Positions 1,638 to 50,338 of a DNA stretch of 64,000 nt are shown piece after piece. The notes under the pieces are model-generated. The model made no database searches. It worked only from the letters and a program-made list of their open reading frames with translations, and had not been told where the DNA came from. Location: assembly GCA_028688415.1 (NCBI GenBank), contig JAQTYF010000001.1:400627-464626 (forward strand), in the 5' to 3' direction. This DNA comes from Candidatus Moraniibacteriota bacterium. GTDB lineage: Bacteria > Patescibacteriota > Minisyncoccia > Moranbacterales > UBA1568. How positions within the stretch are numbered: the stretch's first letter is position 1; the number at the start of each line of letters is the position of its first letter. The position numbers were made by a program, and so were the translations under genes.

Positions 1638-1709
1638 TGGGGAGTAGCCAAGTGGTAAGGCAGGGGCCTTTGAAGCCTCCATTCGTAGGTTCGATCCCTA
1701 CCTCCCCAG
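1638..1709 (+). tRNA. tRNA-Gln (anticodon UUG)
   Basis: Hand-folded cloverleaf. Acceptor stem TGGGGAG/CTCCCCA with U1-A72 as in bacterial tRNA-Gln. 3-bp D stem. Anticodon stem GGGGC/GCCTC with loop CTTTGAA. T arm GTAGG-TTCGATC-CCTAC. No encoded CCA. Confidence 0.85.
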
Positions 1710-1716
1710 CATTAAA

Positions 1717-1768
1717 TAAAACTTAAAGAGGTATCCGTCGTCTGGATACCTCTTTAAGTTTTATTTGT
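1717..1768 (+). terminator. Rho-independent terminator after tRNA-Gln
   Basis: Perfect ~19-bp inverted repeat aaaacttaaagaggtatcc / ggatacctctttaagtttt with a 6-nt loop, followed by a T-run. Confidence 0.6.
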
Positions 1769-1893
1769 TGTAGGAGGAATGGAGCGAACAGTAAAAGGGA
1801 AAAGGGTCGGAAAAACGGGAGTTTTTCCGTTGCGGAGAGCAGGACTTTAGTCCGCTGAGAACCGAGGGGTTCTTAGAGCGCACAAAGTGCGCT

Positions 1894-1912
1894 GTTCGAT
1901 CCCTACCTCCCC
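1894..1912. repeat. 19-nt direct repeat of the tRNA-Gln T-arm/acceptor 3' end (gttcgatccctacctcccc)
   Basis: Identical to 1689..1707 inside tRNA-Gln. Upstream context cannot form a T stem, so this is a fragment, not a second tRNA. Confidence 0.7.
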
Positions 1913-2003
1913 CTCTTATAAAATCCCTGCTCGCAACGATATAGAGCGCATCCGCTTCCCTGCCTCCCCAGCCATCGTCGCTCGCGAGCAACGTGGTCAG
2001 CAT

Positions 2004-2047: not shown

Positions 2048-4171
2048 CTACGATATTGTGATCAGATCTTCTTGTGTACTATTTTTCTTGTACGCCTTGT
2101 GCCTGAACTCTTCGTAGAGCATCGATGCGATTTTCTGAGGCAACATCTCACGTTCTACTATTTCATCCAAGAAATGTTCTTCTGCCTTAAAGAATCCTCT
2201 CCTTCCTACCTTTTCATTTTCCCAACGAAGCTCTTCTTTCATTTTTTCTCCTGATTGAAGCATCTTTTCATGAGCATCTTGTTCGAATTGCACATACAGC
2301 GCAATAACCTTTTTTACGATAATATCATCACCAAACACTCCGCAATAATGTTCCGTCAGTGTATGGAGACGATGAAGGACTTTGGATGCAATGATTTTCT
2401 GAGCACGATAATAATGATATTCGTTGATTGTTTTCTTCCGGTCGTTCATCGGTATCAAAAAATCTCGAAAGAAAGATACTGTTCGTTCGAACCAATCTGG
2501 CGAAAAAACTTCATTAATATCTTGTATTTGATGTTCTTCTCTCTCGACACGAGCCATCTGCATTTCGATTTTGTTGAGCACTTTCTTGTATACTGGTTCA
2601 GAGATTTCACGGTACATGAAAAGCTTCAGGAGAAAACGCTTCTCGGTACCGAGAGCATACATACTCAGTGCTGATTCGAGAGAATAACCATTTTTACGAA
2701 AATCATCACGTAGTACTAATAAAGAAGTTTCATATTCTGCGCTATATTCAGCATTGAGTTTCGTATATACTTCTTCATCGACAAATTCCTTTGTTCGATA
2801 ATCTTTCAATTTTTCAAGCGTCTGAGCATAGACGAGAGCTCGACTCTCGTGGTATTCAACCATCTCGAGTGGGGTCAATTGATCGAGTTTCATTTTTTTG
2901 ATCATACTTCCAATGCTGGTCGCTTTTACTAGAAGTGTAAAATAAACACAACCAATAGTCAGAGCTGAAATAAACTCTTTGATTGAGAAAGAGTATTCCC
3001 ATCCAGCAAGCGTCAGATCATTAGGGATAAGAAGTACCATCGTCACTGCAAGTGCGCCTCGGAGACTTCCCCATGAGAGCAAGTGTTGCCAAGAAAGAGG
3101 AATATGTTCTTCTTTTTTTGTTCTATTCAAGAAACCAATGACAGGGTAAATAGAGAGAGCTCTCCCGATCATAACCACGAGTACCGTCACCATGATAGGC
3201 CACACAAATTGAGAAAAATGTATAGGAAGTCCAGCAAAGAGCAATCCCATCAATATGAAAACAAGAGAATTCGCAATGAAAGCAAAGTATCCCCAGAATT
3301 TTTCCATATATTCTTCGACTCGTGGAGAGATTTTACATCTTCCATAATTCCCGATAACCATTGATGCCATTACTGTCGCAATAACAGAGGAAAGATAAAT
3401 ATGCTGCCCTCCAATAATGAGATGACGAGAGAGGAGTTCTGAGAGTATAAAAGTGAGATGCGCCATAAGCATCGTCAGTGTAATCTCGATATTTTCGTTA
3501 TCGTGTACTTTTTGTATCAGTTTGGCAAAGACAAATCCCATCAAAAGTCCAAATCCGATACCACCAACAACCATCGTCGAAAACATAAATATACCCTGTG
3601 CGACAGATTCTATCCCATGGAATCCTTTCAAAGCGATATCAATGACGATAAGGAACAATGCAATAGCGGTACCATCATTGAAAAGACTCTCCCCTTCAAA
3701 AATAAGAGAGAGTCGTTTTGGTGCTCCAAATTGCTTGAAAAGAGCGAGTACAGCAACTGGATCGGTCGCTGAAATCAGTGCTCCAAAAATAAGTGTCACA
3801 AAAAATGGCACCGGGAAATGAATCCACTGGAGTGCAAAAAACAGTACAAACGCAATAAAAAATGTCGAGAGGAGGAGACTGACTATTGAGAGAAGTGAAA
3901 TCGATCGAACATTGTCCGTCAGATCTCGGAACTTCATATTGTACGCCGATTCAAATATGAGTATTGGGAGAAAAACAAAAAAAAGAAGCTCCGGGGTAAG
4001 CTGAAAACTCTGAATGAAATGAAAGAGTGGTATATGAGAAATCGGGATCAAGAGTGTCCCAACAAGTACAAGCAGAAGCGTGTAAGGAATATGCAAACGC
4101 TCTGCAAAAAAATAGGTACCGACCGAAATAAAAATAAGTACAAAAAGAGCGAGAATTATTTCGATCGCCAT
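2048..4171 (-). CDS. Na+/H+ antiporter, CPA1 (NhaP-type) with a long C-terminal cytoplasmic domain
   Basis: 707-aa polytopic N-terminal half with 'ATDPVAV' and 'FEGESLFND' motifs typical of NhaP/NHE exchangers. Hydrophilic ~300-aa tail. Confidence 0.7.
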   Translation of the reverse strand: MAIEIILALFVLIFISVGTYFFAERLHIPYTLLLVLVGTLLIPISHIPLFHFIQSFQLTPELLFFVFLPILIFESAYNMKFRDLTDNVRSISLLSIVSLLLSTFFIAFVLFFALQWIHFPVPFFVTLIFGALISATDPVAVLALFKQFGAPKRLSLIFEGESLFNDGTAIALFLIVIDIALKGFHGIESVAQGIFMFSTMVVGGIGFGLLMGFVFAKLIQKVHDNENIEITLTMLMAHLTFILSELLSRHLIIGGQHIYLSSVIATVMASMVIGNYGRCKISPRVEEYMEKFWGYFAFIANSLVFILMGLLFAGLPIHFSQFVWPIMVTVLVVMIGRALSIYPVIGFLNRTKKEEHIPLSWQHLLSWGSLRGALAVTMVLLIPNDLTLAGWEYSFSIKEFISALTIGCVYFTLLVKATSIGSMIKKMKLDQLTPLEMVEYHESRALVYAQTLEKLKDYRTKEFVDEEVYTKLNAEYSAEYETSLLVLRDDFRKNGYSLESALSMYALGTEKRFLLKLFMYREISEPVYKKVLNKIEMQMARVEREEHQIQDINEVFSPDWFERTVSFFRDFLIPMNDRKKTINEYHYYRAQKIIASKVLHRLHTLTEHYCGVFGDDIIVKKVIALYVQFEQDAHEKMLQSGEKMKEELRWENEKVGRRGFFKAEEHFLDEIVEREMLPQKIASMLYEEFRHKAYKKNSTQEDLITIS

Positions 4172-8388: not shown

Positions 8389-9037
8389 ACGGTTCTACAT
8401 AAAGTATAGCACCAAATGGACATCCTGGAAAACTCAGTTTCTCTGGCCGTATCCTTCTTTCCTGACCATCTTGTATCAAAGAAAGAAGTTCTCCTCGATT
8501 ATTTATGGTTGTTTCTATGGCATGGGGATGGAGAGCGAGTCCTGCTCCAATTGCCTTCAGGAAAGCTTCTTTGTAACACCATATCTGAAGAAATGGAATA
8601 TGATAACGGATACAAGAATCATATTCCTTAGGAGTCAAGAATGATCGCGAAAATGCCTCTGTACACTCTCGATCGTGTTCTATATCCACTCCGACATACC
8701 CTGTTTCTTCTATAAGAGACAATCCAGCGATTGCTTTTCCTTTCGTATGACTGAGAGACAGAGAATATTCTGAGTGAAAAACAATATCATCATGATGAAG
8801 AATACGGAAATCTGGCCTCGTATGAGAATCACTGATAATTTCTATGTCGATTGGCGCAACCTCTCTATGCCACTGATTCCGAATCATCTGCGAGATGATG
8901 TGTTTGGCAGCTATCCGTCCAGCAAGCCAGTCAGGCTGTTTTTTTTCTGACAATTGCTCGTACTGACTCTGTTCTTTCGGAGACAGACTTTGTTTCATCA
9001 ATACCGAAGATATTTCTTCTTCCCAAAAATAGAACAT
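8378..9037 (-). CDS. 4'-phosphopantetheinyl transferase, Sfp-type
   Basis: PPTase motifs 'GVDIEHDRE' (G-x-D-x-E) and 'WCYKEAFLKAIG' (W/F-x-x-KEA-x-x-K). 219 aa is Sfp-length rather than AcpS-length. Confidence 0.75.
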   Translation of the reverse strand: MFYFWEEEISSVLMKQSLSPKEQSQYEQLSEKKQPDWLAGRIAAKHIISQMIRNQWHREVAPIDIEIISDSHTRPDFRILHHDDIVFHSEYSLSLSHTKGKAIAGLSLIEETGYVGVDIEHDRECTEAFSRSFLTPKEYDSCIRYHIPFLQIWCYKEAFLKAIGAGLALHPHAIETTINNRGELLSLIQDGQERRIRPEKLSFPGCPFGAILYVEPYGE

Positions 9038-9167
9038 ATTCTATATAAAAAATAAATAAAAATAAGCGGTATCACTACTCTTTCTTTCTTCTCCATCTTC
9101 AGTATATGATAAGAACGGAAATCAATGCAAAAGGACAGGAAATATGCTAATATAATGGGTAGATATT

Positions 9168-10355
9168 ATGCGTTATCTTCTTCTCGTCATCATTTTTGTC
9201 CTTCGTGATTTCAGCAAAGCTCGCGCTATTTTTACTATGGTTGTTATCAGTCTCGCTATTGCTTCTACATCGGTACTCGCAACCAATAGCATCCTCGCTG
9301 GGTTTCAAGAGATGCTCAGTAAAGGAGTAAAGGGCTGGATAGGAGATATATTCATTATACCAACGGAAGAGAAGCCATCTATTGATCATGCTGAAGACAT
9401 CATATCAGATATCAAGACACTTCAGTATGTAGAAGCAGTGAGTGTGCGTGCGTCAGCTGATGGAACATTTAAATACAAAGACAAAATCAGTGCACCTTTT
9501 TCACTTATTGGTGTTGATACGGGAGCAGAGGCCTACACTACCGGACTCCCCTCTACCGTCATCCAAGGCCAATTCCTCGATATTACAATGGATTCAGAAA
9601 GTATCATACTGGGTCTCAATTTTGCTGATAGCTTCATAGGAGGTCCGTATGATGGATCAAGTCTTTCTGTAGGAGAAAAGCTCCAGTTCATTCGTAACGA
9701 CGGCAGTGTCAAAGAATATCGTATCAAAGGTATCATTGATGGAAAAAACTTCCTTGCTAATTTCTCTGCAATGCTCCAAAAAGATGAGGTGGAGAGAATA
9801 TCTGTCGAACGTCGCAACAGTTCTATTGTTGTCAAAGTTTCAGAGGAAGAAAAGATAGAATCAGTCAAAAAAACGATTGCCGAAAGACATCCTGATGTTA
9901 TCGTCCATAATTGGATCGAGGAATCAGGCTATGTCGAAGGCATTATGCAAACCGTATATTACATCACGTTTCTCATCTCATCTCTTCTGATTTTCTCAGT
10001 TTTCTTTATCATCGCCATCGTCATATTTATCAATATTTCTCAGAAAAAACGTCAAATCGGAATCATGAAATCAATGGGTGCTACCACTCGTTTTATTGTC
10101 TCCATTTACGTCTTGGAATCGGTCCTATACTTCGTCTTCTCCTATCTCCTTGGTATTCTCCTCTTTCTCGTTATTCATTCTTATTCTGTTTCACACTCAG
10201 TGCCACTTTTGATTGGTGACTTCCATACCGTACTTGATTGGCAGAAAAATATTCTTTATTTCTTCATTCTCCTCCTTTCGGCTTTCCTCGGCGGACTTAT
10301 CCCTTCCTTTTTTGCTTCGAAACAAAAAATTATTGATACACTCCGTAGCACCTAA
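9168..10355 (+). CDS. ABC transporter permease, FtsX/MacB-like
   Basis: N-terminal TM helix, ~230-aa extracytoplasmic domain, then three C-terminal TM helices with 'MKSMGATTRFIV'. This is the typical MacB/LolE permease topology. Confidence 0.75.
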   Translation: MRYLLLVIIFVLRDFSKARAIFTMVVISLAIASTSVLATNSILAGFQEMLSKGVKGWIGDIFIIPTEEKPSIDHAEDIISDIKTLQYVEAVSVRASADGTFKYKDKISAPFSLIGVDTGAEAYTTGLPSTVIQGQFLDITMDSESIILGLNFADSFIGGPYDGSSLSVGEKLQFIRNDGSVKEYRIKGIIDGKNFLANFSAMLQKDEVERISVERRNSSIVVKVSEEEKIESVKKTIAERHPDVIVHNWIEESGYVEGIMQTVYYITFLISSLLIFSVFFIIAIVIFINISQKKRQIGIMKSMGATTRFIVSIYVLESVLYFVFSYLLGILLFLVIHSYSVSHSVPLLIGDFHTVLDWQKNILYFFILLLSAFLGGLIPSFFASKQKIIDTLRST

Positions 10356-27546: not shown

Positions 27547-28250
27547 ATCGTTTGTGTATTTTTTTTCTCACTCATCTTGTGTGATTGTTCTGCTCTCCAT
27601 TTTTCTATTGCTCCATGATTCCCTGAAAGAAGTACCTCCGGCACCCTGTGTTCACGAAAAATTTCTGGCTTCGTATACTGAGGATATTCTACGACACCCT
27701 CTATCGAATGAGATTCTGTTTTTGAACTTTCTTCATTACCCAGTACTCCAGGTAAGAGTCGAGAAACAGCATCCACGACTACCATAGCAGGTATTTCTCC
27801 CCCGGTCAGCACATAGTTCCCAATAGAGAATTCTTCATCAATAAAATTTTCCACCACTCGTTCATCCACTCCCTCATATCGTCCACAAATCAGAATGAGT
27901 CGATTATACCCTGTAAGACGTTTGGCATCAGCTTGTGTAAAGGTTTTCCCCTTGGCAGAAAAAAGTATTGTCCTTGTTTTCTGTTGACTGTTATCTGTTT
28001 GTTGTTGATTGACAATGGTCTCAATAGCTTCTGCGATCGGTTCTACCTTCAGAAGCATCCCCGCTCCACCACCATACGGTGTATCATCAACTGTCTTATG
28101 CTTATCATGAGTATAGTCACGTATATTATGCGTATGGATAGTGATGAGACCATCTTCCTGCGCCCGTTTCAAAATAGACACACCAAAATACGATGTGAAG
28201 CTTTCGGGAAAAAGTGAGAGAATATCGAAATGCATTTTACTAAAAAACAC
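27543..28250 (-). CDS. trmD: tRNA (guanine37-N1)-methyltransferase
   Basis: 'MHFDILSLFPESF' N-terminus. 'DDTPYGGGAGMLLK' SPOUT knot motif. 4-nt overlap with ftsW. Confidence 0.85.
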   Translation of the reverse strand: MFFSKMHFDILSLFPESFTSYFGVSILKRAQEDGLITIHTHNIRDYTHDKHKTVDDTPYGGGAGMLLKVEPIAEAIETIVNQQQTDNSQQKTRTILFSAKGKTFTQADAKRLTGYNRLILICGRYEGVDERVVENFIDEEFSIGNYVLTGGEIPAMVVVDAVSRLLPGVLGNEESSKTESHSIEGVVEYPQYTKPEIFREHRVPEVLLSGNHGAIEKWRAEQSHKMSEKKNTQTI

Positions 28251-28389
28251 AAGTTATAATAAAAGAGGGTTGTTCCTGAAAATTATTTTTTCTTGCTCCT
28301 ATTTCTCTGTCGGTAACTTTTGCGATGAAAGTGTCGTTAGAAACGGAGCGTGACCCGGCCTCGCTCTCGCTCGTCGAGGCGGGCGGATG

Positions 28390-28409
28390 CCTGCCTGTCG
28401 GCAGACAGG
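28390..28409. repeat. 20-nt GC-rich hairpin motif cctgcctgtcggcagacagg (copy 1 of 3)
   Basis: Exact copies at 48680..48699 (same orientation) and 47024..47043 (reverse complement). Internal inverted repeat cctgtc/gacagg. Confidence 0.8.
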
Positions 28410-28543
28410 GTCTCGACAGGACAGTGACGTTTATCGACAACTGAGTCGGAAAAGTTCGACGGAGAAAGAAGGGAGAGAAAAGATAATTTTCAGAAACAAC
28501 AAACACTTTTACTTTATTGTACCACAAAAAGTCTTGTTTGAAA

Positions 28544-28572
28544 GCAAAAATGCCCGAATCGGGCATTTTTAC
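28544..28572 (-). terminator. Rho-independent terminator downstream of the DUF4012 gene (bidirectional)
   Basis: Perfect hairpin aaaaatgcccgaatcgggcattttt with flanking A/T runs on both strands. Confidence 0.65.
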
Positions 28573-28602
28573 AACGGTGCACATGCAGGAACAACGTTTT
28601 CT

Positions 28603-46620: not shown

Positions 46621-46683
46621 CTCAAAAAAAATCAAACTCCTGATGAAAGAGTTTGATATGTGTTGGTGGGTGCGGGGGGAATC
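46621..46683. repeat. 63-nt direct repeat of the tRNA-Lys 3' end plus its downstream hairpin (copy 1)
   Basis: Identical to 46779..46841. Contains the CCA end and 3' acceptor/T-arm part (minus strand) plus the caaactc/gagtttg hairpin. The intervening ~95 nt holds a diverged T-arm-like fragment. Confidence 0.8.
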
Positions 46684-46821
46684 CTCATCGCTCCGACTCA
46701 GAGCCGGGGCGCTACACACAGAATGCTCGCTCGCTCACATTCTACTCACGCCCTTCGATTCCCCTATAAGAAAAAAGTCTCAAAAAAAATCAAACTCCTG
46801 ATGAAAGAGTTTGATATGTGT

Positions 46822-46897
46822 TGGTGGGTGCGGGGGGAATCGAACCCTCGACCGTTGGCTTAAAAGGCCACTGCTCTACCGACTGAGCTACGCACCC
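46822..46897 (-). tRNA. tRNA-Lys (anticodon UUU), CCA encoded
   Basis: Minus-strand fold GGGTGCG...CGCACCC-A-CCA. Anticodon loop CTTTTAA. T arm GAGGG-TTCGATT-CCCCC. Confidence 0.85.
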
Positions 46898-46993: not shown

Positions 46994-47166
46994 AAAAGCC
47001 AATTTTTCATCATCGTTCCACCTCCTGTCTGCCGACAGGCAGGCTCACAAGAGCTCTCAGTAAAACGAAAAAAGAAGCCTCCAATCAACACACTCTTAGC
47101 TTCTTTTTTCGATCTGAGAGCTCTTGCTCAGTCAGTGTGGAAAGGATGTTGAAAAAATTCTTTTGA
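46994..47166. repeat. ~150-nt hairpin repeat, copy A (carries the 20-nt motif as an insertion)
   Basis: Nearly identical to 57943..58087 (two substitutions and one small indel seen by eye), apart from a 20-nt insert at 47024..47043. Internal imperfect ~24-bp stem around a 20-nt loop. Confidence 0.8.
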
Positions 47167-47227
47167 TAAATTGGCCAGATCCACTACAAAGAATTTATAC
47201 TTCAAAATGGGATTGGAGAAACAATTA

Positions 47228-48556
47228 TCACCCTTTCTTCGCTTCTATCACTGCTTTTCCAACAAATGGTTGCAGGACTTCTGGAACAGAAACACTCCCG
47301 TCGGCATTCTGATAATTTTCGAGGATAGCGATGAGAATACGCGGACTCGGAAGCGCAGTGTTATTGAGCATAAAAGCGTATTTTCGTTCCCCTGTCGTAG
47401 CATCTTTGTATTTCACATTGAGACGACGAGACTGCCAATCAAGAAAATTGGATGCAGAACCTGTCTCACCATAGCGATTCATTCCCGGCATCCAGGCTTC
47501 GAGATCAAATGCTCGATATTTCCCAGCACTCATATCACCACTACAGATTTGTATCTTACGATATGGCAGGCCGAGTTCCTGATGCATTTCTTCGGAGATC
47601 GCTATCATTTCATCCTGCAAAGCATCGACAGATGACATATCGGCGGTAGTAATAACTACTTGTTCTACTTTCATAAACTCGTGCACGCGATACATTCCTT
47701 TGGTATCCTTGCCATAACTCCCGATTTCACTACGGTAACACTGACTGAAACCAGCAAATTTGACTGGGAGATTTTTTTCCTCCAAGACTTCTCCGGAATA
47801 GTATGCGAGAAGCGATGGCTCGGCAGTGCCTACCAAAAATTTTTCTTCTTTAGCAAGGCTCCCATCAGCCTCCTTGTCTGAGGTCGCCACCTGATAAATC
47901 TCATCAATAGCACCATCATACTGTGCGCCCTTGAAATATCCACTGCCAAAAAGAGGGAATCCTTTCACGAGTGTTGGGGGAATCATTGGTGTGTATCCCT
48001 TGGAAACGAGTTTTTGCACAGCATACATCATGAGTCCCATCACAAGAAGCATGCCTTCATTCTTCAGATAATATCCACGATACCCAGACACTTTCGTTCC
48101 GCGCTCAAAGTCGATAATATCGAGCATCATACCGAGTTCTATATGTGTACGTGGGATAAAATCAAATGTAGGCACTGCTCCAGAATTGAAGGTTTCGACA
48201 TTCTGTTCCTCACTCGTTCCGATCGGTGTATCTCCTGAAATAATATTTGGCACCTGTGCCATGAGCTCATCATATTCTTTCTTCACTTCTTCAAAGAGAG
48301 GCTCTTTCTCATCGAGTTTCATCTTGATATCTTTTCCTTTGGCAATGATTTCGACACGCTCCTCTTCTGATTTTGCTTGATGAATCAGATCATTGATATC
48401 ATTCTTGAGTGATTTTAATTCTTCAATATCTTGGATAAGAAGTACTCGCTCTTCTGATTTCGCGAGAAGTACCGTCAGATCAAGTGAGCTGTGTTTCGCT
48501 TGAATCGCTTTCTCTACTTCTTCTCTATTATTTTTGATGAATTGAATATCGAGCAT
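47228..48556 (-). CDS. serS: Seryl-tRNA synthetase
   Basis: N-terminal coiled-coil arm. Class II motifs ('FRAEIGSYGKDTKGMYRVHEF', 'GSASNFLDWQSRRL'). Confidence 0.9.
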   Translation of the reverse strand: MLDIQFIKNNREEVEKAIQAKHSSLDLTVLLAKSEERVLLIQDIEELKSLKNDINDLIHQAKSEEERVEIIAKGKDIKMKLDEKEPLFEEVKKEYDELMAQVPNIISGDTPIGTSEEQNVETFNSGAVPTFDFIPRTHIELGMMLDIIDFERGTKVSGYRGYYLKNEGMLLVMGLMMYAVQKLVSKGYTPMIPPTLVKGFPLFGSGYFKGAQYDGAIDEIYQVATSDKEADGSLAKEEKFLVGTAEPSLLAYYSGEVLEEKNLPVKFAGFSQCYRSEIGSYGKDTKGMYRVHEFMKVEQVVITTADMSSVDALQDEMIAISEEMHQELGLPYRKIQICSGDMSAGKYRAFDLEAWMPGMNRYGETGSASNFLDWQSRRLNVKYKDATTGERKYAFMLNNTALPSPRILIAILENYQNADGSVSVPEVLQPFVGKAVIEAKKG

Positions 48557-48660
48557 ATTTTTAGCTTCTTAGCTTCATTAGCTTTTTAGATTTCAAATGA
48601 ATAGGTGGTCGCACTTGGACTCGTCCGATATTCATCGGACGCCCCGCGCATGCGGGGCGA

Positions 48661-48722
48661 ACTAGTGACCCCTGAGCAACCTGCCTGTCGGCAGACAGGT
48701 GTGAATGCAATACTCTAAACCT
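48661..48722 (-). pseudogene. tRNA-Val pseudo-fragment (D loop to T loop) with the 20-nt motif inserted at position 37/38
   Basis: Minus-strand sense reads ggtttagagtattgcattcaca-[cctgtctgccgacaggcagg]-ttgctcaggggtcactagt. The adjacent intact gene reads ggttagagcattgcattcaca-ttgcaggggtcactggt. Confidence 0.65.
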
Positions 48723-48739
48723 CACCCCGTTAGAATTGT

Positions 48740-48812
48740 GGACAACACTGGATTCGAACCAGTGACCCCTGCAATGTGAATGCAATGCTCTAACCAACTG
48801 AGCTAGTTGTCC
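48740..48812 (-). tRNA. tRNA-Val (anticodon CAC)
   Basis: Minus-strand fold GGACAAC/GTTGTCC acceptor. D arm GCTC-AGTTGGTT-AGAGC. Anticodon loop TTCACAT. T arm ACTGG-TTCGAAT-CCAGT. Flanked by a 15- to 17-bp complementary leader/trailer pair. Confidence 0.8.
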
Positions 48813-48853
48813 TCCACAATTCTAACGGGGCAAGCCTGAGCTATAACCTTTTT

Positions 48854-50338
48854 TTATTCTTCTTTTGTTTTCACTGGAGGAAAAATAACGGTCTCTCGTA
48901 CAGAACGATCCATAAGAATGGCAAACAATCGCTCGCTCAAACCAAAACCACACGCCGGAGGCATACCATATTCCAGTGCCTGAAGGAAGTCTTCATCAAA
49001 CATCATACCTTCGGCATCACCAGCATCACGGAGCTTCATCTGTTCTTCAAATCGTAGACGTTGATCGATTGGATCATTCAGTTCTGCAAAACCGTTTCCC
49101 ACCTCACTCTTCACCACTACTGGCTGAAAACGAAGTGCCTTTCTCGGATCACTTGGATCTTTCTTGGCAAGCGGTGAAACTTCTATCGGCTGACCCACGA
49201 GGAAACACGGCTGGATCAATTTCTGTCGCACCGTTTTCTTGTAGATCGTATCAATCATTCGACCTTTGCCAGCTGATGGTTCGTATTTGATATGAAGTTC
49301 ATCCGCTTTTTCTCGGAGTGTCTCGAGGCTGATATCTGAGGAAAGGTCGAGGCCTGTTTCTTTCTGAAACTCCGTAAAATAATCCACTCGAGGAAAGGGT
49401 TTACTCCAATCAATTACGTTACCTTCATGCGTCGATTGCATCGTGTCACCACACACGGCACGAGCGACGTTTTGATATAGCTTCTCTGTCAGTGCCATCC
49501 CCTGTTCCATATTCATATAGGCGGCATAAAACTCCATGTGATCGAATTCTTGCAAGTGTTCTCGGTCAATACCCTCATTACGGAAAACTCGTCCGATCTC
49601 GAATACTCGCTCATACCCACCGACGAGCAATCGTTTTAGAGCCAATTCGAGAGAGATACGCAAATAGAAATCTTGATCGAGAGCGTTGTGATGAGTGATG
49701 AATGGTTCTGCTTCTGCGCCTCCTGGGATGTGTTCGAGTACGGGTGTCTGCACCTCGAGGAATTTCTCCTCGGCGAGTGTTGTACGAATTGTTTGCCAAA
49801 AAATATTTTTCTTCACAAAAAGATCTCTCGTCTCTTGGTTTGCGAGCAAATCGAGATAACGACGACGGAGAAGCTCTTCTTCATCTTTCAATCCATAAAA
49901 TTCTGTCGGGATGGGACGAAGTGATTTCGAGAGCATTTGCCATGATTCGACACGCACACTTTTCTCATTTTGTTTCGTCAAAAAAACTGTGCCTGTTACA
50001 GACAAAAAATCTCCCATTTCTACTGATTTCTTGAACAGCTGAAACATATCTTCTCCGAGAGTTTCGAGAGAAAAGAATCCTTGTACTTGTCCGAAACCAT
50101 CTTCGAGATGACAAAAAGCGATTTTTCCCATCACACGAAGTGACCGCACGCGTCCCACTACCGATACTTTTTGTTCGGTATTTGAGAGACTCTCAAACTG
50201 ATCAACTATCTCCTGACTCGTATGAGTGCGAAATACTGTCTCCGGATATGCGGTACCGAATGATTTTATCAATTGAGTCAGTTTCTCTTTTTTTGTCGCA
50301 ACAATATCTTCACGCATAAGAAAATGGTTTTGAACCAA
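48854..50338 (-). CDS. lysS: Lysyl-tRNA synthetase, class II
   Basis: N-terminal OB anticodon-binding domain. Class II motifs ('FRNEGIDREHLQEFDHMEFY', 'GFGLSERLFAIL'). Confidence 0.9.
   Translation of the reverse strand: MVQNHFLMREDIVATKKEKLTQLIKSFGTAYPETVFRTHTSQEIVDQFESLSNTEQKVSVVGRVRSLRVMGKIAFCHLEDGFGQVQGFFSLETLGEDMFQLFKKSVEMGDFLSVTGTVFLTKQNEKSVRVESWQMLSKSLRPIPTEFYGLKDEEELLRRRYLDLLANQETRDLFVKKNIFWQTIRTTLAEEKFLEVQTPVLEHIPGGAEAEPFITHHNALDQDFYLRISLELALKRLLVGGYERVFEIGRVFRNEGIDREHLQEFDHMEFYAAYMNMEQGMALTEKLYQNVARAVCGDTMQSTHEGNVIDWSKPFPRVDYFTEFQKETGLDLSSDISLETLREKADELHIKYEPSAGKGRMIDTIYKKTVRQKLIQPCFLVGQPIEVSPLAKKDPSDPRKALRFQPVVVKSEVGNGFAELNDPIDQRLRFEEQMKLRDAGDAEGMMFDEDFLQALEYGMPPACGFGLSERLFAILMDRSVRETVIFPPVKTKEE

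Follow-up and report, generated by a model that had tools for sequence, protein, structure and literature searches.

How does a complete tRNA gene come to lie inside another tRNA gene, and are the short hairpins that interrupt the surrounding copy introns, processing signals or traces of mobile DNA? The question is raised by a tRNA-Val(CAC) locus in a Candidatus Moranbacteria (CPR) genome, within a stretch of 64,000 nt that was analysed as a whole (hereafter, the window). A reading made from the letters alone (the sequence-only reading) had described an intact tRNA-Val gene between complementary arms, next to a fragment of the same tRNA that carries a 20-nt GC-rich hairpin at the canonical intron position. 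The features that it described are present where it placed them and lie far above chance expectation. Its view that both are unusual for bacteria was supported; in the literature, no nested or palindrome-interrupted bacterial tRNA genes could be found, the literal 20-mer being included in the search, and the only introns that a meeting report mentioned for CPR were rRNA introns.

One tRNA gene nested in another

The locus consists of one tRNA gene nested in another. An older tRNA-Val(CAC) gene with a GGTCGC acceptor is broken in its D-loop, after A14-G15-G16, by a small palindromic cassette with the termini CTTGCCCCGTTA...TAACGGGGTGA, and a complete tRNA-Val(CAC) occupies the cassette loop. 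The outer gene also holds GC-rich palindromes without cargo, a 20-mer at 37/38 and others after G57. The features of the locus are as follows.

48848..48606, minus strand: outer, decayed tRNA-Val(CAC), full-length, interrupted by the cassette and the small palindromes
48835..48848, minus strand: 5' fragment of the outer gene, GGTTATAGCTCAGG, upstream of the intact gene
48814..48834, minus strand: left end of the cassette, terminus CTTGCCCCGTTA followed by the variable arm GAATTGTGG (the 'leader' arm of the sequence-only reading)
48812..48739, minus strand: inner, intact tRNA-Val(CAC) (ARAGORN; Rfam RF00005, 67.7 bits, model positions 1-71)
48722..48741, minus strand: right end of the cassette, arm CCACAATTC followed by terminus TAACGGGGTGA (the 'trailer' arm of the same reading)
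48700..48721, minus strand: outer gene, remainder of the D-loop to A37, GGTTTAGAGTATTGCATTCACA, 18 of 19 positions as in the inner tRNA
48680..48699, minus strand: 20-mer palindrome CCTGTCTGCCGACAGGCAGG, between nt 37 (A37) and 38 (T38) of the outer gene
48658..48679, minus strand: outer gene, nt 38 to G57, TTGCTCAGGGGTCACTAGTTCG, 19 of 20 aligned positions as in the inner tRNA, plus a 2-nt insertion
48642..48657, minus strand: T-loop palindrome CCCCGCATGCGCGGGG, after G57 of the outer gene, unique in the window
48622..48641, minus strand: second T-loop palindrome CGTCCGATGAATATCGGACG, with an 8-bp stem, unique in the window
48606..48621, minus strand: 3' end of the outer gene, AGTCCAAGTGCGACCA, after the two T-loop palindromes

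The pieces of the outer gene add up to a tRNA. Its 5' fragment reads GGTTAT-A-GCTC-AGG, that is, the acceptor 5' strand, position 8-9, the D-stem 5' strand and the start of the D-loop; it includes the near-universal TAGCTCAG box, and homologous fragments were found at the equivalent place in the relative L009 and in the metagenome nests described below. The piece at 48700..48721 covers the rest of the D-loop, the D-stem 3' strand, position 26, the anticodon-stem 5' strand and the anticodon loop through A37, and that at 48658..48679 covers nt 38, the anticodon-stem 3' strand with an extra CT, the variable loop, the T-stem 5' strand and the T-loop through G57. The remainder of the T-loop, the T-stem 3' strand (with one extra A), the acceptor 3' strand and the discriminator follow at 48606..48621. 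The acceptor type of the outer gene, GGTCGC/GCGACC, is intact at the same locus in two relatives (L005 and L023). Alignment of the downstream copy with the inner tRNA gave 37 identities in 39 positions (BLAST E = 8e-5 and 1e-3 in a 1.4-kb search), a similarity far beyond chance, and it was broken by the CT insertion in the anticodon-stem 3' strand and by a 20-nt gap directly after A37, which places the 20-mer exactly between nt 37 and 38, as had been claimed. The reported tRNA-Val pseudo-copy does exist, but it is a complete, decayed gene enclosing the intact one, and not a D-to-T fragment beside it. It should be noted that simple duplications of 3' fragments occur at other tRNA genes of the window: at tRNA-Lys, a direct repeat of 62 nt contains the terminator as well, and 3' fragments of tRNA-Gln lie downstream of that gene.

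The inner tRNA-Val(CAC), which does not encode CCA, is presumably the functional gene and is the cargo of the cassette. When all inserts were removed in silico, ARAGORN called the outer sequence as tRNA-Val(CAC) at a relaxed threshold only, and in the resulting cloverleaf GGTTAT met the distal GCGACC as GC, GC, UA, UG, A x C and UG. The transitions in the acceptor 5' strand, the additional CT in the anticodon stem and the additional A in the T stem show the outer gene, as judged from its sequence, to be a pseudogene. After excision its D-loop reads AGT/AGTTA (the slash marks the excision point) instead of AGTTGGTTA, and both G18 and G19 are missing. This suggests that either the insertion was not a simple, clean one, or some of the flanking D-arm travels with the element.

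The D-loop cassette in the window and in other genomes

The bracketing of the intact gene could be confirmed as a perfect 17-nt inverted repeat, CCCCGTTAGAATTGTGG (48830..48814) and CCACAATTCTAACGGGG (48741..48725) on the minus strand, whose 3' arm begins within the inner tRNA, its first three bases being C71, C72 and A73. Folding of the precursor, which had been proposed as a check, predicted ~20 consecutive pairs with a minimum free energy of -61.5 kcal/mol (z = -6.8; none of 200 shuffles was as good). A long predicted helix thus encloses the tRNA, as the sequence-only reading had it; on the other hand, the arms belong to a palindromic cassette in the D-loop of an older gene, and the idea of a dedicated leader and trailer is not supported: the conserved termini also occur with non-tRNA filler or a small loop between them (L015, L094 and L085). 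The terminus CTTGCCCYGTTA is common to the window, L009, L015 and ~14 metagenome contigs, and TAACRGGGTGA(AG) was kept in all 12 cassettes compared. As in MITEs, the terminal inverted repeats are conserved while the interior varies (a tRNA, AT-rich filler or a loop of 4-12 nt). The terminus sequences recorded were CTTGCCCY..., ...RGGGTGAA, CNCGCCCCGCA...TGCGGGGTGAA and CCTGCCYGCC...GGCRGGCAGG.

Alignment of the relatives' loci, another of the proposed checks, revealed that 10-11 of 21 lysS-linked tRNA-Val(CAC) loci of Moranbacteria combine an intact gene with fragments of another allele, and these fragments are interrupted by GC-rich inserts whose positions in the D-loop, at 37/38 and in the T-loop are fixed. 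In one relative (L009), the D-loop nest recurs, but its arms and its inner allele differ from those of the window; another (L015) has the same cassette with no tRNA, and in ten relatives the tRNA is present and the helix is absent.

These comparisons bear on the possibility that the pairing of leader and trailer has been kept by selection for processing or regulation of the inner pre-tRNA, like the RNase III stems of rRNAs, with the tRNA fragments being incidental. The predicted helix is strong, and across 12 cassettes its complementarity was kept through double changes: 92.9% of the arm cells were paired (40-48% in slid registers), none of 500 shuffles reached the score, and two-sided changes were seen in 6 of 14 pairs (27 cells). 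In addition, pairing extends into the tRNA ends in three cases (CCA/TGG in the window, GGGC/GCCC in L101 and GGGCG/CGCCC in L094). However, a single G-U pair occurred among ~156 paired arm cells. Template-switch correction of quasi-palindromes is a known mutational mechanism that yields strictly Watson-Crick covariation, and arms of this strictly Watson-Crick kind fit a DNA palindrome better than a selected RNA helix. The predicted arm pairing also competes with the acceptor stem, the termini and arms persist where no tRNA is enclosed, and the ten relatives without the helix retain the tRNA. We consider a selected processing helix improbable.

Metagenomes were scanned with the junction GCTCAGKCTTGCCCYGTTA, and ~14 unrelated contigs were judged genuine. 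All of them follow the same order: 5' part of an outer gene, terminus and arm, a complete tRNA of the same anticodon, arm and terminus, and remainder of the outer gene. The nests involve Val(CAC), Val(GAC) and Val(UAC), with related cases in Ile(GAT) and Ala(UGC). The junctions GCTCAGK/CTTGCCCY... and ...RGGGTGA/AGTTAGAGC (slashes mark the boundary), together with the 12-nt termini, recur across tRNA species and across contigs of 30-49% G+C. After in-silico excision, 5 of 12 outer genes were called as tRNA-Val at the default threshold of ARAGORN, some of them with perfectly complementary acceptor stems (L095b, L101 and L098), and the other seven were decayed, which suggests a series of ages. 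One contig (L095) contains two nests 4.2 kb apart, in a Val(GAC) and a Val(UAC) gene, which are identical from TAGCTCAGT through GTTAG except for two single bases and the anticodon arm; in each nest the anticodon arm matches that of its own outer gene. This points to copying of the cassette between the two genes, and copying between sites, as expected of a MITE-like element, is also indicated by the occurrence of one junction in Val, Ile and Ala genes. In two further contigs (L086 and L091), the same two tRNA types are nested reciprocally, and nesting three deep was seen in L097 and L095. With respect to the termini, the cargo may also lie the other way round (L095), and this, with arms that sometimes reach into the cargo, would allow that the tRNA was placed into a pre-existing palindrome, or that local recombination took place.

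An assembly artefact of repeated tRNA k-mers, as might arise in a metagenome-assembled genome, has next to no probability in our view. The region is repeat-rich. A comparison of L087 with L100 yielded the sole, suggestive candidate for a filled/empty polymorphism, but repeats at the end of a contig confound it, and it could reflect an alternative assembly path. However, the spacer is identical in two independent assemblies (NCBI GCA_028699965.1 and the Logan assembly of SRR22315503), more than 20 assemblies, produced in different studies and with different assemblers, show the architecture, and the inserts break tRNA sequence that is otherwise continuous and collinear. A search for empty sites in near-identical strains gave no record for the lysS protein, and with serS only two contigs were retrieved, the source contig, with 1 SNP, and a Logan contig that is identical.

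No gene for an integrase, a transposase or an HUH enzyme could be identified near the window locus, in the relatives' spacers or beside the metagenome nests. The neighbouring genes of the locus are housekeeping genes, and the spacers of L009 and L063 contain small unrelated ORFs. A scar of an integrase or prophage was rejected on the basis of these absences, and an integrase att duplication was rejected because the 5' end and the D arm are part of the copy, which surrounds the intact gene and is separated from it by cassette arms only. Terminus pairs lay 40-330 nt apart throughout the 870 kb examined, no autonomous version of the cassette being found among them, and no clean target-site duplication was found for the D-loop cassette. 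Phage delivery of the cassette was rejected, as IMG/VR contained no match for the widespread GGTCGCA-type tRNA-Val, for either cassette junction or for the T-loop 20-mer described below.

Small palindromes and the intron question

The 20-mer CCTGTCTGCCGACAGGCAGG has three exact copies in the 64-kb window (0.00 expected), with unrelated flanks. Besides the copy in the outer gene, these are:

28390..28409, minus strand: second exact copy, at the centre of a ~230-nt imperfect inverted repeat (28269..28500) between trmD and a DUF4012 gene
47024..47043, plus strand: third exact copy, inside an inverted-repeat nest (46998..47175) between serS and tRNA-Lys

All three copies lie in loops of larger hairpin-forming DNA. 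Related inserts occupy 37/38 in L004, L086, L091 and L098, and variants of the 20-mer were found in L004, L045, L059 and L067. In IMG/VR, the family has 94 copies on 76 stretches, with the exact 20-mer in 23 loci; a single one of the 94 viral copies is inside a tRNA, a phage tRNA-Met (L146) that is otherwise intact and has the copy in its variable loop. The exact 20-mer is conserved over contigs of 38-59% G+C. It is a cosmopolitan dispersed palindrome that also resides in non-tRNA DNA, and its near-identical, self-complementary copies with unrelated flanks resemble those of REP and MITE sequences. The three copies in the window show no target-site duplication. When 90 distinct sites were examined, 14% had direct repeats of at least 6 nt in their flanks, compared with 4% in controls, and abutting direct repeats of 7, 8 and 14 nt were present at three of them. 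A sequencing adaptor or artefact was ruled out as the source of the 20-mer, which interrupts a collinear tRNA, has degenerate variants and occurs several times within contigs.

Of the two T-loop inserts, the first, CCCCGCATGCGCGGGG, resembles an empty T-loop cassette, its halves CCCCGCA and TGCG(C)GGGG matching the termini of tRNA-carrying T-loop cassettes in L087 (CACGCCCCGCACC...GGTGCGGGGTGAAA) and L094; for the second, CGTCCGATGAATATCGGACG, no family match was found. A T-loop 20-mer, CCTGCCCGCCTTGGGAGGGG, has five copies, all of which lie within tRNA remnants, at the same T-loop position and in different alleles. Palindromes are also present in a protein gene: in lysS of L073, a palindrome doublet forms an in-frame insertion of ~10 residues relative to the close relative L074. 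These insertions, together with the dispersed copies of the 20-mer, speak for mobility of the small palindromes. A census of GC-rich perfect hairpins showed a 2.2-fold enrichment near tRNAs (p = 0.08), but it was too strict, imperfect stems being missed, and is not used as support here.

A rival view is that no dedicated tRNA-targeting cassette exists and that the nests are passive scars: ordinary recombination events (duplications, gene conversion, old integrase events or DNA taken up from relatives) would have struck a hot locus, and unrelated REP-like palindromes would have accumulated in non-functional DNA. In its favour, the 20-mer is not tRNA-specific, and no transposase, target-site duplication or autonomous element was found. 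In addition, the other tRNAs of the window bear plain 3'-fragment duplications, and inner and outer genes usually share their centre and differ in the acceptor and T stems, a pattern that gene conversion would give. What makes such passive scarring unlikely is the recurrence of the same 12-nt termini and junctions in different tRNA species and base compositions, the identical cassette backbone in two genes of one contig and the fixed T-loop position of CCTGCCCGCCTTGGGAGGGG in different alleles; random recombination would not be expected to put a new gene between perfectly complementary arms each time.

The position of the inserts could also suggest that they act at the RNA level, either as a new bacterial tRNA intron or as parts of a split outer tRNA, in which the cassette arms would keep the two halves joined once RNase P and RNase Z have freed the inner tRNA; the outer gene would then be functional. 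The 20-mer at A37/T38 occupies the position of protein-spliced introns, and the other inserts are in the D-loop and after G57; the sites 37/38, D-loop and 56/57-57/58 are among the positions of canonical and non-canonical introns in archaea, whose median length is 12-25 nt (PMC4090602). The five callable outer genes regain a cloverleaf on excision, perfect acceptor stems among them, and one copy of the 20-mer lies in the otherwise intact phage tRNA-Met. However, a bulge-helix-bulge (a 4-bp helix with two 3-nt bulges) could not be drawn at any junction on inspection, including the fold of the outer anticodon arm and the T-loop and D-loop inserts of relatives. The 20-mer instead folds as a plain hairpin of 8-9 bp that stacks on the anticodon stem without bulges, and on inspection no sequence complementary to the exon bases UUCACA, which precede the 5' junction, was seen close to the 3' end of the insert. 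The core of a group I intron ribozyme comprises P1-P9 and usually exceeds 200 nt; the insert measures 20 nt, and Rfam reported no intron at the gathering threshold or at E <= 10. A 26-bit Rfam hit to plastid ycf2 was spurious, being the antisense of the tRNA.

Moreover, removal of the insert does not yield the functional tRNA that an intron requires: the A x C mismatch, the additional CT and the additional A remain, the outer gene is called at the relaxed threshold only, and its excised D-loop is without G18 and G19. Since each nest holds an intact copy with the same anticodon, the outer gene is redundant; truncation or a chimeric structure is seen in many outer genes, and the arms have almost no G-U pairs. 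No splicing endonuclease (EndA/Sen) or ligase was found among the ~24 of ~60 long window ORFs that were covered by a protein-family scan or by recorded Pfam hits (including lysS, serS, a glycosylhydrolase-like protein, mrdA, mreB, mreC, trmD, greA, frr and an M50 peptidase), and no cognate transposase (RAYT or IS) was found among the scanned window ORFs. The intron hint of the sequence-only reading is therefore not borne out, since the bulge-helix-bulge is absent, the insert is too small for group I, Rfam finds none and the interrupted copy is lesioned and redundant. A function of the inserts at the RNA level appears improbable.

Proposed explanation and comparison with known systems

The reading that we prefer, with a probability of roughly 60%, is that palindromic cassettes carrying a replacement tRNA serially invade the loops of tRNA genes, after which the outer gene decays. 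Cassettes and mini-palindromes would be non-autonomous mobile DNA that preferentially enters tRNA genes where these encode loops or, in a broader sense, any loop of hairpin-forming DNA. A cell in which a cassette with a replacement tRNA lands in an essential single-copy tRNA gene could remain viable. Palindromes without cargo would persist only in dead copies, spacers or tolerant protein loops, and this would explain why they pile up in the outer gene. Repeated invasion would produce Russian-doll nests with decaying outer layers. Once transcribed, the arms would form a helix of ~20 bp around the inner pre-tRNA. Opening or cleavage of this helix, for instance by RNase III, would be needed to give access to RNase P and to 3' trimming; the helix would be a by-product of the DNA palindrome and not the reason for its existence.

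The Russian-doll layout, which is repeated across many uncultured bacteria, looks like an undescribed route by which selfish DNA invades and replaces tRNA genes. A wider proposal, to which we would give somewhat less than even odds, is that Patescibacteria (CPR) harbour undescribed miniature mobile palindromic cassettes, which home to defined tRNA loop positions (D-loop 16/17, 37/38 and T-loop 56-58, of the kind that archaeal tRNA introns and split tRNA genes also occupy) and neutralise their own damage with a complete replacement tRNA whose anticodon arm is matched, leading to serial replacement of tRNA genes.

tRNA genes are classic landing sites for selfish DNA, being conserved and found in all hosts. 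Invaders described so far preserve the tRNA by self-splicing (group I introns), through host splicing enzymes (archaeal introns) or by bringing a copy of the 3' part (integrative elements). The apparent solution here differs and is minimal: a non-coding palindrome of 100-145 nt with a whole spare tRNA. If true, this would represent a new kind of mobile element without a gene of its own, would imply rapid turnover of tRNA alleles in very small genomes, and would explain odd tRNA fragments in MAGs of these organisms and genes that tRNA finders under-call or mis-call there. It would also bear on an old question, namely why 37/38 and the D and T loops are where tRNA introns and split sites cluster, as the same positions would be hit at the DNA level in these bacteria, which are not known to have a tRNA-splicing endonuclease. 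On the wider proposal, the system would be a living bacterial model for the origin and spread of tRNA-loop insertions before, or without, a splicing machinery. The 20-mer that is exactly conserved in contigs of such different G+C content would be a separate puzzle.

Among known systems, the tRNA fragments left by integrative elements (att duplications of tyrosine integrases, located in the anticodon loop, the T-loop or the 3' end) also consist of a partial copy beside an intact gene, with a loop-coding target and a functional tRNA kept. In contrast, the nest has no integrase or element body, contains a complete tRNA instead of a 3' part, is nested and not tandem, uses the D-loop as the target and has an insert bounded by a perfect palindrome. 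Integrative-element fragments have been mis-called as tRNAs (PMC9897764).

Archaeal tRNA introns, both canonical and non-canonical, share with the inserts their short length (~15-20 nt here, median 12-25 nt there), their sites at 37/38 and in the D- and T-loops, the occurrence of near-identical inserts in different tRNAs and the ability to nest another RNA gene (a box C/D RNA in a tRNA-Trp intron). The nest differs from them in that it lacks a bulge-helix-bulge, is found in a bacterial host and has interrupted copies that are redundant and decaying, and its inserts are self-complementary hairpins, not exon-pairing sequences. Transposition has been proposed for archaeal tRNA introns in Thermoproteales, according to the summary in PMC4090602 (Fujishima 2010).

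Group I introns in the anticodon loops of bacterial tRNAs are likewise selfish insertions in tRNA genes that keep the supply of functional tRNA, whereas the cassette brings a second gene, with no self-splicing and no ribozyme, in an insert of 20-145 nt. As in the RNase III leader-trailer stems of rRNA operons and the intervening sequences of 23S rRNA, a flank helix encloses a stable RNA in the precursor, but the cassette helix (a predicted one) is optional among close relatives, is present without cargo, competes with the acceptor stem and covaries as DNA does.

Finally, small palindromic repeats are known as REP/BIME sequences, MITEs, Rickettsia palindromic elements and the GC clusters of yeast mitochondria. 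Like the palindromes here, they are dispersed non-coding GC-rich palindromes in the spacers of AT-richer genomes, and Rickettsia palindromic elements are also found in frame in proteins (compare lysS of L073), palindromes being present in RNA genes as well. To our knowledge, there is no cognate transposase for the palindromes reported here. They differ from the known repeats in being much shorter (15-20 nt), in that some families are tied to one tRNA-loop position and some carry a tRNA as cargo, and in the exact conservation of one 20-mer across contigs of 38-59% G+C.

Anatomy of the tRNA-Val locus

The tRNA-Val region of this bacterial genome is flanked by lysS and serS, and the closest relatives of its lysS (82% identity or less) belong to MAGs of Candidatus Moranbacteria/Moraniibacteriota, Patescibacteria (CPR). 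A second assembly, GCA_028699965.1 (contig JAQVTP010000003.1), differs from the window by one SNP, and the spacer is identical in an independent Logan assembly of SRR22315503.

48854..50338, minus strand: lysS (NCBIfam)
48812..48739, minus strand: inner tRNA-Val(CAC), the sole tRNA-Val called (ARAGORN and Rfam, 67.7 bits)
47228..48556, minus strand: serS (NCBIfam)

An Rfam match to 'Plastid-ycf2 5'UTR' at 48738..48812 on the plus strand (26.4 bits, below the gathering score of 65.7) was dismissed as the antisense strand of this tRNA.

The 17-nt inverted repeat described around the intact gene in the sequence-only reading was found as stated, and its flanks do enclose the precursor in a helix of ∼20 bp in the predicted fold (z = -6.8). 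The neighboring pseudo-copy is also present. It matches the inner tRNA at 37 of 39 aligned positions, the gaps being the 20-mer, which enters immediately past A37 as claimed, and then an extra CT. However, it does not end at the T-loop. Past the T-loop TTCG, the minus strand contains the palindromes CCCCGCATGCGCGGGG and CGTCCGATGAATATCGGACG, beyond which AGTCC-AAGTG-CGACC-A represents the remaining T-loop, the T stem and the acceptor 3' strand. Upstream of the 5' arm and immediately past the lysS stop, GGTTATAGCTCAGG corresponds to the acceptor 5' strand and the TAGCTCAG box. Joined in silico, the four exon-like pieces were called tRNA-Val(CAC) by ARAGORN at a relaxed threshold; the GGTTAT/GCGACC pairing of this cloverleaf includes two G-U pairs and one mismatch. 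The intact gene thus sits within the D-loop of an older gene that has a GGTCGC-type acceptor and is complete, though decayed. This type is intact at the same locus in two relatives (L005 and L023). We refer to the palindromic element in the outer D-loop as the cassette and to the inner tRNA as its cargo; in-silico excision leaves an outer D-loop of AGT joined to AGTTA.

Other tRNA genes of the window showed comparable debris. The tRNA-Lys(UUU) gene (46622..46897, minus strand) is followed by a ∼62-nt direct repeat of its 3' end from the T-loop (ATTCCCCCCGCACCCACCA) plus a terminator hairpin, the units being separated by ∼95 nt of GC-rich filler with degenerate tRNA-Lys pieces. Similar fragments occur in the relatives L001, L007, L009 (with a palindrome in the D arm), L010 and L014. 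Near tRNA-Gln(UUG) (1638..1972, plus strand), a 19-nt exact copy from T-loop to 3' end (1894..1912) is abutted on its 5' side by the GC palindrome AGCGCACAAAGTGCGCT (1877..1893), and a second fragment of 16 nt lies at 1957..1972. Thus, of the window's four tRNA genes, three (tRNA-Val included) adjoin decayed partial copies.

Recurrence in relatives and metagenomes

An intact gene accompanied by remnants of another allele was observed in 10–11 of the 21 readable lysS-linked tRNA-Val(CAC) loci, and the GC-rich palindromes in these remnants occupy fixed places.

Palindromes at the lysS-linked locus of relatives (L handles, lysS-serS spacers)
D-loop, after AGTT: TCCGCCCAAGGCGGACAGG and relatives
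Between GGTTA and GAGC: 35-nt hairpin (L001, L007)
Position 37/38: GCCTGCCTGCCGTAGGCAGG (L004)
T-loop, after TTC: CCTGCCCGCCTTGGGAGGGG (L001, L007, L012, L014)

The fragments hosting the T-loop insert differ in acceptor allele, and all five of its matches in 725 kb were within tRNA remnants, one of them a tRNA-Lys. L009 has the design of the window (GGACGACTAGCTCAGG, then CTTGCCCCGTTACAACTG, aa, the intact tRNA and CAGTTGTAACGGGGTGA, then AGTTAGAGC), with arms and an inner allele differing from those of the window. In L015, these termini enclose only a 12-nt loop, with no tRNA. The cassette termini are conserved and the interior is variable.

Among L001-L028, the acceptor-stem alleles of tRNA-Val(CAC) (GGATGAT; GGACGAC/GGACAAC/GGACAAT; GGTCGCA; GGTCGCT) showed very fast turnover between close relatives, GGTCGCA being near-identical in at least 11 MAGs with 20-30% LysRS difference; CCA was encoded in some copies and not in others. 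In some relatives, small extra ORFs separate the tRNA-Val locus from serS: a NUDIX-like one in L009 (5650..6231) and L010, and an unrelated one of 185 aa in L063 (5634..6191). Small genes are thus also gained in this spacer.

When metagenome contigs were scanned for the junction GCTCAGKCTTGCCCYGTTA, 20 matched, six of them by chance in coding regions of unrelated, mostly G+C-rich DNA. The same nest was present in ∼14.

Nests in metagenome contigs
Val(CAC): L088/L096/L102, L091, L097, L087/L100
Val(GAC): L095, L098
Val(UAC): L095, L101
Ile(GAT): L094, a cargo-less D-loop cassette plus a tRNA-carrying T-loop cassette
Ala(UGC), partial: L083

The inner anticodon was identical to the outer one in every metagenome nest. 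After in-silico excision of the cassette, 5 of 12 outer genes were called tRNA-Val at the default threshold, and outer acceptor stems were perfectly complementary in L095b, L101 and L098, the remaining outer genes being chimeric or decayed; together the outer genes form a graded decay series. Three-level nesting was found in L097, L086 and L095, and one pair of tRNA types is nested in opposite order in L086 and L091. The two nests of L095 lie 4.2 kb apart; over their whole length the two cassettes differ only at two bases and in the anticodon arm, and each anticodon arm is that of its own outer gene. This is direct evidence for the copying of a cassette between genes, with its anticodon arm converted either during copying or afterwards. 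Immediately downstream of the Val(UAC) nest of L095, an ORF (8940..9599) matched a 2H phosphoesterase domain weakly and below threshold (PF22547, E = 4.5e-4). RNA ligase/CPDase enzymes that repair tRNA belong to this superfamily; the match may well be coincidental.

Arm helix and small palindromes

When 12 cassettes were aligned by their termini, 92.9% of arm cells were paired, compared with 40-48% in slid registers; both sides had changed in 6 of 14 arm pairs (27 cells), and none of 500 shuffles matched the observed arm score. Arm position 8/33 was CG in seven cassettes and UA in five, with no intermediates, and only one G-U occurred among ∼156 paired cells. In selected RNA helices, G-U intermediates are the norm. 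Covariation of this strictly Watson-Crick kind is what a DNA palindrome would give, and could reflect either what the element requires structurally or the known mutational process in which template switching corrects quasi-palindromes. A dedicated processing stem, to which the predicted helix might point, is the less likely reading because G-U pairs are nearly absent, cargo-less cassettes exist and ten relatives have no such helix around the tRNA. Nevertheless, the arms would still pair once transcribed, and the resulting RNA helix would need to be handled.

The suggestion of an intron with precursor processing was only partly supported. Protein-spliced introns need a 4-bp helix between two 3-nt bulges (PMC4090602), and no bulge-helix-bulge could be drawn at any junction by folding and inspection. 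Introns in the tRNAs of bacteria are ribozymes of group I (PMC4090602); Rfam detected none at the locus.

The 20-mer has three exact copies in 64 kb (0.00 expected), whose flanks are unrelated, yet all lie in loops of larger hairpin-forming DNA.

48680..48699, minus strand: anticodon loop of the dead tRNA
28269..28500: centre of a ∼230-nt imperfect inverted repeat between trmD and a DUF4012 gene
46998..47175: nest of inverted repeats between serS and tRNA-Lys

The arms of the second structure are 44 nt (82%) and 25 nt (72%) around a GC-rich centre; an overlapping ORF of 114 aa (28240..28584), for which Pfam gave no match, is unlikely to be a gene. The third contains four nested inverted repeats, in which perfect 13-nt arms (CAAGAGCTCTCAG/CTGAGAGCTCTTG) enclose a hairpin resembling a terminator (AAAAAAGAAGC/GCTTCTTTTTT), and the 20-mer is in the 5' internal loop of this structure.

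Variants of the 20-mer occur in distant Moranbacteria. In IMG/VR, the family CCTGYCTGCCGNNAGGCAGG has 94 copies in 76 viral or putative-viral stretches of 33-70% G+C (L103-L178, e.g. L141, L113, L104, L175), often several and up to four per contig. Three exact variants dominate, and the exact window 20-mer occurs at 23 loci (38-59% G+C). Since the family is so widespread and only one IMG/VR copy interrupts a tRNA (the tRNA-Met variable loop of L146), the 20-mer is a cosmopolitan palindromic mini-insertion and not a tRNA intron. Direct repeats of at least 6 nt flank 14% of family sites versus 4% of controls, a modest enrichment, and perfect abutting ones of 7, 8 and 14 nt were found at three sites (L136, L109, L117). 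Unlike this family, the cassette junctions and the T-loop 20-mer had no match in IMG/VR.

The viral L146 insert is a perfect palindrome, CCTGCCTGCCGGCAGGCAGG (2284..2303), at 45/46 of an otherwise intact tRNA-Met(CAU), with a damaged homologue in L106 (8616..8635); it may be tolerated because it would resemble a long extra arm. The 20-mer core CTGCCGACAGGCAG may resemble the type I-F CRISPR repeat stem-loop, CTGCCG(C/T)A(C/T)AGGCAG; solitary repeat units carried by phages are known as RNA anti-CRISPRs.

Mobility of small palindromes is also indicated by the lysS of one MAG (L073, 4139..4168), where a related 15-mer doublet, TCCGCCAAAGGCGGA-TCCGCCTCTGGCGGA(GG), absent from the near-identical L074, adds in frame ∼10 residues (a SAKGGSASGG-like stretch) to lysyl-tRNA synthetase, a housekeeping protein. 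It behaves like the Rickettsia palindromic elements, which insert in frame into proteins. L033 has a single 15-mer at this site.

Proposed mechanism and known systems

The original observation is confirmed and extended: the architecture is real and recurrent. We propose that cassettes are non-autonomous mobile DNA entering loop-coding sites of tRNA genes. A cargo tRNA would turn an otherwise lethal hit viable and later make the cassette indispensable; cargo-less palindromes would persist only in dead copies and would thus accumulate in them. Conversion between inner and outer genes would give the shared central parts and matched anticodon arms. Cargo might enter together with the arms or enter a pre-existing palindrome, and its orientation can differ (L095).

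No integrase or transposase was found among the ORFs scanned in the window neighborhood or beside other nests, and no autonomous cassette version in the 870 kb searched. tRNA-gene fragments of the integrase-scar kind are known (PMC9897764); those are tandem 3' fragments flanking an integrase-bearing element, whereas the present copy is a whole gene that encloses the intact one. Our literature search found no description of nested or palindrome-interrupted tRNA genes in bacteria. The architecture combines known themes, namely the targeting of tRNA genes, small palindromic elements and insertions that compensate for their own damage, and the probability that a new class of mobile element is involved is substantial.
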